In this document: one piece after another, positions 10,810 to 17,640 of the stretch
Layout: the number at the start of each line of letters is the position of its first letter
Position numbering within the stretch: the first letter of the stretch is position 1
NCBI GenBank assembly: GCA_036501665.1
Contig: DASXZW010000024.1
Span: 1-27,895 of the forward strand
Length of the DNA stretch: 27,895 bases
Direction: 5' to 3'
Origin: Verrucomicrobiia bacterium
Lineage (GTDB): Bacteria; Verrucomicrobiota; Verrucomicrobiia; Limisphaerales; Palsa-1400
Position numbers and translations under genes: made by a program
The notes under the pieces: model-generated
Seen by the model: only the letters and a program-made list of their open reading frames with translations
Databases searched by the model: none
Told to the model about the DNA's origin: nothing

Positions 10810-11274
10810 ATGAAACGCAATCGCAACCGCAAATACGCAGCTCTGACGCTCCTGGGAAACTCCCAGGCAGCGTTTCCCAAGTCCCCTCAGAAGGCAACGC
10901 TTGAAGTGTTTGCGAATACCCACCCACAGCGCGATTACTCAATCCGCATTGACTGCCCTGACTTCACGTCGCTCTGCCCCGTGACCTGCCAACCCGATTT
11001 CGCCGAGATCGTTGTTGATTATATTCCCGATGCCCGTTGCATCGAGACGAAATCACTCAAGCTTTATTTGGCTTCGTATCGCAACGTGCATTCGTTCAAC
11101 GAAGCGGTAATCAATCGCATTCTCGACGATTTGGTTCGATCCTGCCAACCGCGCCGAATGCGAATCGAGGGTCACTTCGCCGCCAGAGGCGGACTTGCCC
11201 TCACCGTGATCGCGGCATATCCGCAAAGCGAAATTGACGCCGGTCGTCCCGTCCGAAAAGGAGGTAAAATATGA
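10810..11274 (+). CDS. queF: NADPH-dependent 7-cyano-7-deazaguanine (preQ0) reductase, unimodular type
   Basis: LTLLGN, FTSLCPVTCQPDF (catalytic Cys context) and ETKSLKLYLASYRN (QueF motif) match B. subtilis-type QueF. GGAG lies 9 nt upstream of the ATG at 10810. The upstream in-frame extension from 10591 was rejected. Confidence 0.9.
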   Translation: MKRNRNRKYAALTLLGNSQAAFPKSPQKATLEVFANTHPQRDYSIRIDCPDFTSLCPVTCQPDFAEIVVDYIPDARCIETKSLKLYLASYRNVHSFNEAVINRILDDLVRSCQPRRMRIEGHFAARGGLALTVIAAYPQSEIDAGRPVRKGGKI

Positions 11275-11975
11275 AAACAAAAGTTGTCGTACTCGTCAGC
11301 GGCGGAATGGATTCCGTTTCCGCCCTCTACGAAGCGCATCAGCAATACATTGTCACCGCCGCGCTCAGTTTTGACTACGGCTCAAAGCACAACCACAAAG
11401 AGATTCCATTTGCCGCGTGGCATTGTCAGAAACTCGGTATTCCTCACCACGCCATCTCTCTTGATTTTGTCGGCCAACTTTTCAAGTCTGACCTCTTGAA
11501 GTCCGGCGGCGCGATTCCAGACGGTCACTACGAAGAGCAAAGCATGAAGCAAACTGTCGTGCCCTTCCGTAACGGCATTATGCTCTCAATTGCCGGAGGC
11601 TTCGCTGAGTCCATAGAGGCGAACGGGTTGGTCATTGCTGCTCACTCAGGGGACCACGCCATTTATCCCGACTGCCGAGAGGATTTCATGAAGTCGATGG
11701 CAGATGCGCTTCGACTTGGCACGTACGCCGCCGTCGAAATCCTGCGCCCATTCATTCACCGGACAAAGGCTCAGATTGCCCAGCGCGGACACGACCTCGG
11801 TGTCGATTTCTCAAAAACCTGGTCATGCTATAAAGGGGGTGACATCCACTGCGGCACATGCGGCACATGCGTTGAACGCCGTGAAGCGTTCATGCTCACT
11901 GGACTTCCCGACCCGACAATTTACGCTGAAACCTCAACTCTGCCCCCGAAGCCGGCGGCAGCCATCCACACCTGA
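11271..11975 (+). CDS. queC: 7-cyano-7-deazaguanine synthase
   Basis: PP-loop: VVLVSGGMDS. C-terminal Zn site: CYKGGDIHCGTCGTCVERREAF. ATGA overlap with queF. Confidence 0.95.
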   Translation: MKTKVVVLVSGGMDSVSALYEAHQQYIVTAALSFDYGSKHNHKEIPFAAWHCQKLGIPHHAISLDFVGQLFKSDLLKSGGAIPDGHYEEQSMKQTVVPFRNGIMLSIAGGFAESIEANGLVIAAHSGDHAIYPDCREDFMKSMADALRLGTYAAVEILRPFIHRTKAQIAQRGHDLGVDFSKTWSCYKGGDIHCGTCGTCVERREAFMLTGLPDPTIYAETSTLPPKPAAAIHT

Positions 11976-15713: not shown

Positions 15714-17640
15714 GCTGGTCCACACTTACTTTTCGCTCCAGCGCCAAGCACAGTCAGGTGGTAGGCTTGGCACGATCCACTTCGGGAATGGAGGCAAGGT
15801 TCAGACCCCGGCTCTGTTCCCGGCCATTTGCATTATGACCGGCCCCCCCGGTTTTGGCCGTCAGGGCTCGCACTACAAGTACATCAAACGCATTATGTGC
15901 CGCGAGTGGCACCACAATCATTTCCTGACTGAGATCCTCCACTTTGCGGACTATATGGCGACAGCCAAATCATTGAATGCATGGCTGATCAAGCCATTCC
16001 ATCTCTGGATGGATGAAATGATGCGTGGCGGCAATGTGTCCAATCAGGACCAAGGCGATGATTTTGATTACGAACCGGGCCGGGCATACGAAGCCTGTTT
16101 TTTCCTCGACTCAGGCGGGTTTAAACTCCTTTCGAATAGTGATTTCAGCATTCAGAAATTCGGTTATGAAACCAGCCCAAAAAACATTCTCGACCTCCAG
16201 ACCCACATGGGCGGGGATATTATTGCGTCCCTCGACTACCCATTGGCCCCGTTGGATTATGATCATAAGACCCTGGCTCAATTGCAAAACAAGAGCCTCG
16301 ACAACGCCGTCTGGCTCCTTAAACAAATTGCCGACCGAGGTAGCAAAGGGCCGCGCCCTTTAGTTTACTTGGCGGTCCACGGCATAGATTGCGAATCTGC
16401 CCACGACTGCACTGAGCGCCTGCTGCAAAAACTCGACTCAGGAAATTTTCAATATGAGGCATTCGGATTCGCCATCGGCTCACTAGTGCCGCGCCGCAGC
16501 AATCGCGCTCTTGTTGCGAGTATTGTAAAAGGCGTCGTTGATGCAATCCACGATCATCACAACGGTCGTTATATCGAAAAGCCCGTCCATGCTTTCGGCA
16601 TGTCCGGAGACCTCATCCCGACCCTTACAATGCTCGGTGTGGACACCTTCGACACCAATGCCTTTGTCCAAGGTGGCAAAAATCTGCGGTATATCTTGCC
16701 CCCGCGAGGGGCAAACCTCTCCGTTCGTGAGACTAGGTCTATCGACGAACTTTCGTTGGATACCCTCCGCACATGCGGCTGTCGCGCCTGTACCAGATAC
16801 GAAAAACTTCTCAATCCATTTAAGCAACTAGCTCGCATGGAGAGAGACACTCGCCATAAAATTAAGGGGGTTGGCCGTCACCTGATCAAGTCCGAGATCT
16901 ACGCTTTCCTGGCGCTTCACAACCTCGAAACCGAATATCGGGAAATTGAGGCAGTAAAAGCCGAAATTCTGAACAACACTCTGCCAGCCTACGTCCGCTC
17001 TTACGCCGAGCGCGCCAATCACCGTGGAACTCTCATCCGGGCATACGAAGCCGCCACCGGTGAGTTCGTCCCCCGCACGACTGGCAGACGGGTTTCCCTG
17101 GAGCTTACGCGGGAATCTTTTGGCATCTCAGACACGTACCGCCCCCCAGAGGATAAAGAAATCCTGATTTTTCTGCCTTGCACAAAAGATAAACCTTATA
17201 GTAGCGCGCGCTCCCACCAGGCGATTCGCGGGGCGCTCAACAAAGACCCACGCATACACATTGTCACCATCTCTGGCCTCTATGGCCCTGTACCGGAAGA
17301 GTTGGAGCAGGAACCCGAAATCCTCCAATATGACTACGTTCTGTCACCCGAAGCGAAGGAGCAATCGAACGCCATCACGCGACGATTGAGCGAATATCTG
17401 AAGCGGTTCGGCACCCATTACAAGACCATCGTCGCTTACGTCACCACCCGCGCGTACCGTCACGTTGCAAAGCAAGCACTCCGGGCTTATGGACGTGGCG
17501 TGTTATTGCCCACGGCGCCAAAAGAACAAACATCCAAAGAATTTCTCCGATACGAGAATATTCGTGAGCTCCAGACAACTTTGGCACCACACATAGAAAC
17601 CTCAAAATCACTTGATGCATACCAAACCCTGAACACTTAA
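15706..17640 (+). CDS. dpdA: DNA-guanine transglycosylase-like TGT-family protein (DpdA-like) fused to a C-terminal ArcS/DUF5591-type domain
   Basis: TGT hallmarks:
- VQTPALFPA
- FFLDSGGFKLLS (compare TGT DSGGFQ)
- GFAIGSLVP
- HAFGMSGD...LGVDTFDT
- Zn site CGCRAC...LALHNLETEY

An extra ~180 aa follows, containing LPCTKDKPYSSARSH. The start at 15706 (MSRLVHTYF..) was chosen over 15544. Confidence 0.85.
   Translation: MSRLVHTYFSLQRQAQSGGRLGTIHFGNGGKVQTPALFPAICIMTGPPGFGRQGSHYKYIKRIMCREWHHNHFLTEILHFADYMATAKSLNAWLIKPFHLWMDEMMRGGNVSNQDQGDDFDYEPGRAYEACFFLDSGGFKLLSNSDFSIQKFGYETSPKNILDLQTHMGGDIIASLDYPLAPLDYDHKTLAQLQNKSLDNAVWLLKQIADRGSKGPRPLVYLAVHGIDCESAHDCTERLLQKLDSGNFQYEAFGFAIGSLVPRRSNRALVASIVKGVVDAIHDHHNGRYIEKPVHAFGMSGDLIPTLTMLGVDTFDTNAFVQGGKNLRYILPPRGANLSVRETRSIDELSLDTLRTCGCRACTRYEKLLNPFKQLARMERDTRHKIKGVGRHLIKSEIYAFLALHNLETEYREIEAVKAEILNNTLPAYVRSYAERANHRGTLIRAYEAATGEFVPRTTGRRVSLELTRESFGISDTYRPPEDKEILIFLPCTKDKPYSSARSHQAIRGALNKDPRIHIVTISGLYGPVPEELEQEPEILQYDYVLSPEAKEQSNAITRRLSEYLKRFGTHYKTIVAYVTTRAYRHVAKQALRAYGRGVLLPTAPKEQTSKEFLRYENIRELQTTLAPHIETSKSLDAYQTLNT

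Follow-up and report, generated by a model that had tools for sequence, protein, structure and literature searches.

The window, a 27,895-nucleotide stretch from a Verrucomicrobiia bacterium (contig DASXZW010000024.1, assembly GCA_036501665.1), carries at positions 10810-17640 the genes queF-queC-queE-queD-folE2, a ParB-like gene, and a gene for a tRNA-guanine transglycosylase (TGT) domain fused to a DUF5591 domain. We consider it probable, at roughly two chances in three, that these seven genes are the modification half of a Dpd-like 7-deazaguanine restriction-modification island of ~17 kb (10810-27895), carried by a mobilisable element in a member of the Verrucomicrobiae. The first-pass annotation of this DNA had read them as a module for DNA-directed deazaguanine modification with its own preQ0 supply on a mobile element, and comparison lends support to that prediction, through the Dpd genes, DpdG among them, found beside the ParB/fusion pair of one relative, the minimal locus of another (L092), and the structural matches to proteins of Vibrio phage nt-1. 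Two points absent from that annotation, the DUF5591 domain of the TGT-like protein and the weight of QueF, bear on which base would finally be made.

The TGT-DUF5591 fusion protein

In the fusion protein Pfam recognises two domains and nothing else, TGT at residues 131-436 and DUF5591 at residues 474-614; the PUA and C2 RNA-binding domains are absent from the Pfam scan of its 644 residues. Archaeosine synthase, ArcS, has DUF5591 as its catalytic core (C1 domain), and the phage versions that consist of DUF5591 only are named ArcS2 (PMC10516641). When 18 homologues with identities of 33-76% are aligned, the TGT half shows invariant counterparts of the TGT general acid/base (the D135 of DSGGF), base-binding aspartate (D177), and nucleophile region (D313/D316, in GVDTFD); the substrate loop GSLVP (258-262) and the zinc ligands C357, C359, C362, and H405 are invariant too. 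In the DUF5591 half of the same alignment C492, K496, P497, and Y498 are invariant, and the ArcS motif PC-x3-KPY-x2-S-x2-H reads PCTKDKPYSSARSH in the window, with one change, from Ser to Ala, at a position where several homologues retain Ser. The GSLVP loop is identical between relatives with and without QueF, so that the base specificity is probably the same in both.

The AlphaFold (AF2) model of the fusion has a predicted local distance difference test score (pLDDT) of 87.6, and its best fold match in the PDB is the P. horikoshii ArcTGT (1iq8, E 3e-21), ranked above bacterial and eukaryotic TGTs. A profile search of the PDB also places ArcTGT first, at 107 bits over ArcTGT residues 87-367, and the DUF5591 protein AF0587 second, and the best NCBIfam match is ArcS (88 bits), aligned from residue 304 onward only. 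Among the BFVD models, the structural matches include phage DpdA-type TGTs, such as the TGT-like protein of Vibrio phage nt-1, and, separately, the DUF5591 protein of the same phage, and DUF6884 phage proteins match the C-terminal part of the model. DpdA has a TGT fold, three active-site aspartates (general acid/base, base-binding, and nucleophile), and a structural zinc site (PMC10164549); this active-site feature, with three invariant aspartates and the zinc site, is present in the fusion, and the model supports the TGT fold. From its domains and conserved residues we predict that the fusion acts as a DNA guanine transglycosylase and then modifies the base that it has inserted. A search of 1.84 billion representative proteins yields, at E <= 1e-30, family members that fall into 76 clusters at 50% identity, of which the window's clade is a single one, and the system is niche rather than widespread.

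The ParB-like partner

The gene upstream of the fusion ends at 15713, and the fusion gene starts at 15706, giving an overlap of 8 nt (15706-15713). Its product aligns with Noc (7nfu) at 94 bits over residues 8-179 and with Spo0J/ParB structures at 83-87 bits, and the motifs GERRLRAA (GxxRxxA) and ENLQR are visible in the Noc alignment. The HTH_ParB Pfam match is weak (E 0.0022), and the PDB alignment continues to residue 179. No family match was found for the C-terminal ~310 residues, in which half of the protein three Cys pairs are conserved; the AF2 model of the last 309 residues was poor (pLDDT 67.8, predicted template modelling score 0.31) and was not used for fold search. The protein is like the ParB/Noc CTP-dependent clamps in having an N-terminal domain with GxxRxxA and ENLQR followed by a helix-turn-helix (HTH), but differs from them in that a Cys-rich stretch of ~310 residues takes the place of their C-terminal dimerisation domain, and in being coupled to a transglycosylase instead of ParA-driven segregation. 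No parS-like palindrome was identified. The full-length partner family comprises about 15 clusters, and the ParB/fusion pairing is retained down to 36% identity.

A TGT paralogue next to a ParB-like gene had been taken in the first-pass annotation as the signature of DNA-directed insertion. This is an analogy only, as the two proteins belong to neither the DpdA nor the DpdB family.

The precursor genes

The order and coupling described earlier for these genes are borne out by the coordinates: ATGA start/stop overlaps join queF/queC (11271), queE/queD (12666), and queD/folE2 (13145), a 1-nt gap (11976) separates the end of queC (11975) from the start of queE (11977), and a 256-bp gap (13961-14216) separates the end of folE2 (13960) from the start of the ParB-like gene (14217), which is followed by the 8-nt overlap. 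All seven open reading frames (ORFs) from queF to the TGT-like gene are free of internal stops. Profile searches with Pfam and NCBIfam agree with the family names given earlier, QueF, QueC, and FolE2 being above the NCBIfam equivalog cutoffs; for QueE the top five NCBIfam matches are all QueE models, yet under their equivalog cutoffs. QueC has only a marginal match to QatC. FolE2, QueD, QueE, and QueC belong to well-assigned families of established enzymology, and the cluster encodes with them a complete route from GTP to preQ0, of which QueF, on the same grounds, could reduce part to preQ1. The earlier statement that the module lies away from queA/queG/tgt housekeeping genes agrees with the finding of none of these three among the window ORFs scanned.

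The queF gene is present in relatives with at least 67% identity (to the fusion protein, as for all relatives below) and absent from those at 59%, 48%, and 36%. A QueF-like amidinotransferase was considered as the primary reading for its product and rejected, given the end-to-end alignment with B. subtilis QueF (4f8b, 118 bits, residues 7-137 of both proteins) and the retained QueF motif (ETKSLKLY, with Cys55, Asp62, and Glu97 also kept), although a change at the position of His96, discussed below, leaves some doubt. The residues are numbered as in B. subtilis QueF; QueF enzymes have a catalytic Cys, an Asp, and a His-Glu pair, His96 being catalytic, and an NADPH motif of the form E(S/L)K(S/A)hK(L/Y)(Y/F/W). 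A literature search on the active-site His gave nothing relevant.

An Rfam scan of the whole window detected no preQ1 riboswitch or other RNA family. Two minor features touch the folE2-parB gap. At 14146-14175 there is an imperfect inverted repeat of 11 nt, and a minus-strand ORF of 224 aa with a TTG start (13610-14284), probably spurious, spans the gap.

Conservation of the island among relatives

A block of 16 genes is syntenic in L093 (97%), L003/L004/L011 (76%, a locus on the chromosome of a Verrucomicrobiae metagenome-assembled genome, in the 2.1-Mb contig CAWEXI010000005.1), L005/L006 (67%), and L090 (59%), despite differing flanks. It runs in the order que genes, folE2, parB, fusion, zinc-ribbon protein, sigma54-type AAA+, phospholipase D (PLD)-family nuclease, P-loop ATPase, HerA-like ATPase, two proteins without assigned family, and two BrxD-like ATPases. 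In every readable locus of the 59-97% relatives the defence-like genes are conserved together with the modification genes, and for this reason we take the unit to be 10810-27895, an island of restriction-modification type. In L091 (69%) the modification genes are retained and followed by small unassigned ORFs, and we judged this locus uninformative on the restriction genes.

This changes two statements of the first-pass annotation. The module had been placed between conjugation genes and defence-like genes; the relaxase and type IV coupling protein (T4CP) genes are indeed upstream, but the defence-like genes are part of the unit and not mere neighbours. It had also been proposed that the element can modify DNA in any recipient, and while the element does carry its own precursor supply, a ~17-kb island of restriction-modification type is a different reading.

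At 48% identity (L007/L008), a module of queCDE, folE2, parB, fusion, and small-protein genes is followed by genes for SNF2, DEAD, DpdG (PF28110), and a 1021-aa ATPase. At 36%, the locus in L092 (2017-5909) consists only of a 418-aa ParB, the fusion, and a transporter of the Vut_1 family, with no que or restriction-like genes; Vut_1 is the family of the preQ0 transporter YhhQ. Since L092 has only these three genes, no second TGT appears to be needed. What persists across the relatives is the ParB/fusion pair, which forms the core; the precursor comes from the module's own genes or by import, and the restriction partners can be exchanged. The zinc-ribbon protein gene follows the fusion in L004, L006, L008, L090, and L093, i.e. 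with both kinds of restriction module.

More remote fusion homologues, at 30-35% identity, are spread over Poribacteria, cyanobacteria, Chloroflexi, and haloarchaea, and near none of them, the haloarchaeal ones included, did we detect a ParB. Their same-strand neighbours comprise DNA methylases (9), DEAD and ResIII helicases (8 and 7, respectively), GmrSD_N proteins (6), a second TGT (10), and a DpdC-like protein (PF03883; 1). In haloarchaeal genomes and plasmids, TGT-DUF5591 fusions ~31% identical to that of the window lie beside large helicases and AAA ATPases.

Several side observations concern these distant loci. In nine of them an N6/N4 DNA methylase is encoded directly upstream on the same strand, and judging by size (~328 aa) these are most likely poribacterial (e.g. 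L027-L030, L043); in other poribacterial loci, genes for iron-containing alcohol dehydrogenase (Fe-ADH) or aminotransferase, which look unrelated, are found downstream. Six loci have a GmrSD_N/DUF262 gene downstream, by size (~362-368 aa) most likely the cyanobacterial L046, L048, L050, L051, L068, and L085. This domain belongs to the ParB-like fold, which makes the GmrSD_N protein a possible third type of partner from the ParB superfamily, next to DpdB and canonical ParB. On the Haladaptatus plasmid NZ_CP119784.1 (L001, 11992-25919), three genes annotated as tRNA-guanine transglycosylase are found within 14 kb, two of ~650-670 aa, at least one of which is a TGT-DUF5591 fusion, and one of 352 aa, with a DUF6884 protein and a 1,493-aa AAA protein alongside. 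The Nostoc sp. MS1 plasmid pNSMS101 (L094, 11794-12729) has a stand-alone TGT-family gene of 311 aa beside dnaB, set among MT-A70, cytosine, and S-adenosylmethionine (SAM)-dependent methyltransferases together with an AlkB; the region possibly serves the plasmid for DNA modification or against restriction.

The downstream restriction-like genes

Beyond the fusion gene, the island continues with nine further genes (Table 1). The AAA+ protein has the Walker A motif GPTGCGKT, the Walker B motif VLIDEI, and the loop GAFTDA, with no sensor domain detected; it is conserved in L004, L006, L090, and L093, the loop being GAFTGA in L006 and the motif missing in L090. The candidate sigma54 promoter has counterpart elements at the same position in L005 (13765-13780, TGGCACGCGACTCGCT) and L004 (11485-11500, TGGCATGAGAAAAGCC), and a partial one in L090. 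A loose sigma54 pattern is not found above chance across the window, so that only the positional conservation of the element carries weight. Together with the AAA+ gene, this suggests that the effector genes could be transcribed on activation. A scan of 9000-27895 for sigma70 promoters and terminators gave counts at chance level and was not used.

The PLD nuclease carries the H-x-K and GSxN elements. The P-loop ATPase that follows is conserved along with the island in L003-L006, L090, and L093, its L090 orthologue having a faint BrxC_BrxD match, and the L090 orthologue of the HerA-like ATPase carries DUF87. For the 285-aa protein we adopted the start of its L093 orthologue (the longest ORF would begin at 23953), and the stop codon of the second BrxD-like ATPase is the last triplet of the window. 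As a side observation, the GC content is ~0.52-0.56 in the que/parB/TGT part (11000-17000) versus 0.47-0.50 over the small-protein, AAA+, and PLD genes (17500-21000), a drop that fits a mosaic of modules with different histories.

Table 1. Genes and elements of the island and its upstream flank, with the matches on which each assignment is based.
Feature	Position	Strand	Evidence or remark
TrwC relaxase	2989-5808	-	upstream of module
ParA-like gene	6458-7267		upstream of module
T4CP	7617-9107		upstream of module
HATPase_c_4 gene ('putative ATP-dependent DNA helicase RecG C-terminal')	9343-10566		directly before queF
queF, unimodular preQ0 reductase (preQ1 synthase) homologue	10810..11274	+	TIGR03139 161 bits, cutoff 86.9
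queC, 7-cyano-7-deazaguanine (preQ0) synthase	11271..11975	+	PF06508 4.6e-61; TIGR00364 184 bits, cutoff 150
queE, radical-SAM 7-carboxy-7-deazaguanine synthase	11977..12669	+	Radical_SAM 7.9e-14; NCBIfam QueE models, best 2.8e-31
queD, 6-carboxytetrahydropterin synthase	12666..13148	+	PTPS 5.9e-27; TIGR03367 7.5e-20
folE2, GTP cyclohydrolase IB	13145..13960	+	PF02649 8.3e-92; NF010200 278 bits, cutoff 215
ParB/Noc-type CTPase-like N-terminal domain, HTH, and Cys-rich C-terminal extension, 498 aa	14217..15713	+	ParB_N 8.7e-25
TGT (ArcTGT-like) and DUF5591 (archaeosine synthase core, ArcS2-like) fusion, 644 aa	15706..17640	+	Pfam TGT 2.9e-17, DUF5591 1e-19
132-aa protein, C-terminal zinc-ribbon (C-x(2-5)-C ... 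C-x2-C)	17714..18112	+	no significant family match; Cys pairs conserved in alignment
sigma54-interaction-type AAA+, RtcR/PspF-like	18125..19327	+	PF00158 1.7e-28; PADLOC RtcR_PspF2 1.5e-37
candidate sigma54 promoter GG-N10-GC, TGGCATACCACTCGCA	19454..19469	+	12 nt before PLD start codon
small PLD-family nuclease, candidate restriction effector	19481..20011	+	PLDc_2 2.8e-6; RE_NgoFVII 9.9e-5; PADLOC ZacB 5.6e-11
P-loop ATPase, weakly AAA_22- and BrxC/D-like	20200..21336	+	AAA_22 0.0037
HerA/FtsK-like ATPase	21346..22746	+	AAA_22 5e-7; PADLOC mad8 3.3e-11, HerA 2e-8; NCBIfam HerA_antiphage 1.4e-5
429-aa protein, no family match	22743..24032	+	orthologues in L003-L006, L090, L093
285-aa protein, no family match	24046..24903	+	orthologues of 283-290 aa in L004, L005, L090, L093
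BrxD-like ATPase 1	24900..26207	+	PF10923 6e-46; NCBIfam BrxD 6.4e-38 (below cutoff); PADLOC BrxD 8.2e-39
BrxD-like ATPase 2, C-terminal zinc-finger-like region	26198..27895	+	PF10923 1.4e-23; weak zf-H2C2_5, zf-C2H2_12

Comparison with known systems

The closest parallel is Dpd, of Salmonella Montevideo and other bacteria, which comprises DpdA/B/C plus DpdD-K (PMC10164549, PMC5699537). The restriction genes DpdD-K encode SNF2 and DEAD/YprA helicases, DpdG, the DpdH/I ATPases, and a PLD nuclease. Like the window, Dpd pairs a TGT-fold enzyme with a ParB-superfamily NTPase, has preQ0 synthesis genes within or beside the cluster, is a horizontally mobile island, and has a multigene restriction part with a PLD nuclease and BrxC/D-related ATPases, the combination of the PLD nuclease with BrxC-related ATPases being documented for Dpd (bioRxiv 10.1101/2025.09.15.676423). 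A direct link is provided by the 48% relative, in which the pair adjoins the SNF2, DEAD, and DpdG genes. The differences are also clear. The TGT of the window is ArcTGT-like, fused to DUF5591, and not of the DpdA family, and its partner is of the canonical ParB/Noc CTPase type, whereas DpdA requires DpdB, a ParB-superfamily NTPase that is a DndB/SspE-like ATPase with a DGQQR motif (PMC10164549). Furthermore, the window has QueF, and its restriction part is without SNF2, DEAD or YprA helicase, and DpdG, having instead the sigma54-type AAA+, HerA-like, and two BrxD-like ATPases. Judged by its gene content, the cluster seems to behave functionally like Dpd, yet it falls outside the DpdA, DpdB, and DpdC families.

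The fused architecture is paralleled by DpdA2 and ArcS2 of Vibrio phage nt-1 (PMC6884629, PMC10516641), where a DNA transglycosylase likewise works with a DUF5591 core without PUA. In E. coli, DpdA2 alone leads to dPreQ0 in plasmid DNA, and DpdA2 plus ArcS2 to dG+ (PMC10516641). The nt-1 proteins are separate and viral, in contrast to the window, where the two activities share one polypeptide in a system that is cellular or borne by an integrative and conjugative element and is accompanied by ParB and a restriction-like module. In the archaeosine pathway (ArcTGT, and ArcS with RaSEA; PMC11298593), to which the catalytic domain is closest and whose ArcS motif is found in the C-terminal domain, two separate enzymes each carry C2 and PUA tRNA-binding domains, whereas the window has one protein with neither, in a bacterial, mobile, ParB-linked, defence-type context. 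Since ArcS modification prevents reverse exchange by ArcTGT (PMC11298593), fusing the insertion and modification activities in one protein can be rationalised.

BRIGADE of halophilic archaea (bioRxiv 10.1101/2025.09.15.676423) shares with the window a predicted deazaguanine hypermodification and restriction with a small PLD nuclease, but is defined by YprA-family helicases and reported only from haloarchaea, whereas the window is bacterial and has no YprA helicase. The haloarchaeal fusion loci resemble, but need not be, BRIGADE loci.

Other defence systems were considered and rejected. BREX and BREX-related capture (BRC) do not fit, as PglZ, BrxA, BrxB, BrxC, and GNAT are missing and the window offers no more than BrxD-like ATPases and a single HerA-like one, against a BRC component set of PglZ, BrxC/DUF6079, BrxA/DUF4007, and HerA with or without GNAT/TGT. 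MADS was rejected because there is only one weak ATPase match (mad8), and a methyltransferase, a specificity subunit, and a kinase form the basis of the published MADS. In the searchable literature we found no description of a CTPase-type ParB/TGT-DUF5591 pair or of the effector set of the window.

Evidence that weighs against a Dpd-like island

A number of observations count against reading 10810-27895 as a Dpd-like restriction-modification island. The fusion does not fall in the DpdA family: its NCBIfam matches are ArcS, TgtA, and general TGT models, PADLOC gave none, and the PDB profile search returned nothing named DpdA, the presence of a DpdA model in each of these libraries being unverified. 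Its conserved aspartates are necessary but not sufficient for transglycosylase activity. The ParB-like partner does not have the DpdB hallmark (a DndB/SspE-like ATPase with DGQQR) but canonical ParB/Noc motifs. DpdC (DUF328/PF03883), which converts dPreQ0 to dADG, was not found in any window ORF scanned, and for this reason dADG is not the expected product. In the restriction-like module there is no helicase, in contrast to Dpd, as no ORF matched DEAD, Helicase_C or DUF1998, and most of the restriction-like parts match known defence families weakly. Poribacterial homologues of the fusion are often beside housekeeping-looking Fe-ADH and aminotransferase genes. DNA as the substrate and a role in defence are, finally, deduced from domain content and neighbours.

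The chemistry raises further difficulties. T. kodakarensis ArcS requires the radical-SAM partner RaSEA (PMC11298593), and the cluster has no RaSEA candidate, QueE being its sole radical-SAM gene. QueF is hard to reconcile with a DUF5591 domain that modifies the nitrile. Moreover, the QueF position of B. subtilis His96 is Asn in the window and L005, and Cys in L003/L004; given this change, the cluster-linked QueF may not be an ordinary four-electron reductase and may have altered chemistry.

Alternative explanations

The alternative that survives best, although we regard it as unlikely, is a stand-alone anti-restriction ('stealth') modification of the mobile element's own DNA, with the downstream genes being an unrelated defence system. 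The module comes directly after the relaxase, ParA, and T4CP genes, and phage deazaguanines are known to protect from restriction (PMC6884629); L092 has the ParB/fusion pair without restriction-like genes, and the Nostoc plasmid has its stand-alone TGT among DNA methyltransferases beside dnaB. However, the downstream genes are in the same order in four independent relatives (76%, 67%, 59%, and 97%), whatever lies upstream, and the 48% relative swaps in a complete Dpd-type restriction set, the pattern of a modification module with exchangeable restriction modules.

That the genes serve RNA modification, with their preQ1 going into host tRNA queuosine and the fusion producing a base like archaeosine in tRNA or some other RNA, seems to us very improbable. 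The absence of PUA and C2 domains from the fusion, its obligate partner (a DNA-binding ParB whose gene overlaps by 8 nt), and the lack of queA, queG, and tgt among the ORFs scanned all speak against it, as do the location in a mobile defence island and the linkage of relatives to DpdG, helicases, DNA methylases, and GmrSD_N. These points outweigh the fact that the closest characterised sequence relatives, ArcTGT and ArcS, are tRNA enzymes, that QueF makes the tRNA precursor preQ1, and that some poribacterial homologues are among housekeeping genes. T. kodakarensis ArcS, for its part, takes substrates down to a preQ0 nucleoside monophosphate (PMC11298593), a further point in favour of RNA.

We likewise see little chance that the system deazaguanylates a protein or small molecule as in type IV CBASS, e.g. 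on the zinc-ribbon protein or ParB, and so arms or regulates the downstream effectors. There, the TGT-fold Cap10 and the QueC-like Cap9 carry out nucleobase-protein conjugation (bioRxiv 10.1101/2025.04.06.647259), and the family profile of the fusion does touch Cap10, weakly (E 0.022), just as a conserved small-protein gene does follow the fusion. But the QueC of the window is an ordinary one, above the equivalog cutoff and with only the marginal QatC match, it is accompanied by a full FolE2-QueD-QueE pathway, a ParB partner, and, in relatives, Dpd-type restriction genes, and the fusion retains the residues of an ArcTGT-like nucleic-acid transglycosylase. Equally improbable is a fusion that acts only as an ArcS-like post-insertion modifier, its TGT half binding the base while insertion is left to an enzyme from another locus of the host: for all that ArcS is the best NCBIfam match and that haloarchaeal loci hold the fusion plus additional TGT paralogues, the ArcS model aligns from residue 304 onward only, the N-terminal half is a full-length barrel with the 107-bit ArcTGT match, both catalytic aspartates, and the zinc site, and neither the conserved cluster of the window nor the minimal L092 module has another TGT.

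Proposed mechanism and implications

If 10810-27895 is indeed a Dpd-like restriction-modification island, FolE2, QueD, QueE, and QueC would make preQ0 from GTP, and QueF would reduce part of it to preQ1. The ParB-like protein may supply nucleotide-dependent DNA engagement as a CTP-switch clamp, in analogy to the dependence of DpdA on its ATPase DpdB, while the ArcTGT-like domain of the fusion, with its Asp pair and zinc site, would exchange guanine in double-stranded DNA for the deazaguanine base. The DUF5591 domain could then turn the nitrile of DNA-bound preQ0 into a formamidine (dG+) or a related adduct, like ArcS2 of phage nt-1. Because of the DUF5591 domain and QueF, the final base is probably one beyond dPreQ0, e.g. 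dG+ or dPreQ1. The mark would shield self DNA from the downstream PLD nuclease and the HerA-like, other P-loop, and two BrxD-like ATPases; transcription of these effectors may start at the candidate sigma54 promoter and be switched on by the AAA+ protein, whose gene lies immediately before it. Having the full precursor pathway would free the island from the host queuosine genes after horizontal transfer.

A bolder version of this proposal can be put forward only tentatively, and we think that the odds are against it as a whole: that the CTP-switch ParB clamp loads or escorts a bifunctional enzyme which writes a deazaguanine new to cellular bacterial DNA (dG+, dPreQ1, or an undescribed adduct, e.g. 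a preQ0-amino-acid amidine or the product of the His96-variant QueF) as the self signal for an undescribed, sigma54-controlled set of PLD, HerA-like, and BrxD-like effectors. In bacterial genomic DNA only dPreQ0 and dADG, made by DpdA/B/C, are reported, dG+, dPreQ1, and derivatives being reported from phages (PMC10516641, PMC10164549).

If correct, these predictions would describe a cellular system in which a single fused enzyme both inserts the base and modifies it further, with the DpdB ATPase replaced by a canonical ParB CTPase domain and the mark coupled to a helicase-free restriction module. The Dpd paradigm would be broadened, and the biology of ParB-CTP clamps would be tied to DNA base modification. 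A compact cassette of ~7.3 kb (10810-18112) would also become available for the study of how TGT-fold enzymes are targeted to double-stranded DNA. The functional claims are predictions, and both the DNA-modification and the defence field have good reason to take an interest in the cluster.

Flanks and mobility

The island adjoins different genes in different genomes, and in the window it neighbours the relaxase and T4CP genes; both points speak for mobility. A megablast search against plasmids gave no match, and a tblastn search against 50,697 phage records no detectable sequence match. Of the upstream neighbours, the HATPase_c_4 gene is common only to the window and L093, where the orthologue is longer (769-2355) and also has DUF4062.

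Three exact copies of a 13-mer, ATAATCTACCGAT, are found at 10563, 10574, and 10595 (10563-10607, with spacings of 11 and 21 nt; chance expectation 0.26 copies). They begin with the HATPase_c_4 stop codon, and queF lies ~200 nt further downstream. A conserved loading site was considered for these repeats and rejected, as they are common only to the 97% relative L093; they are probably a local operator and not a feature of the family.

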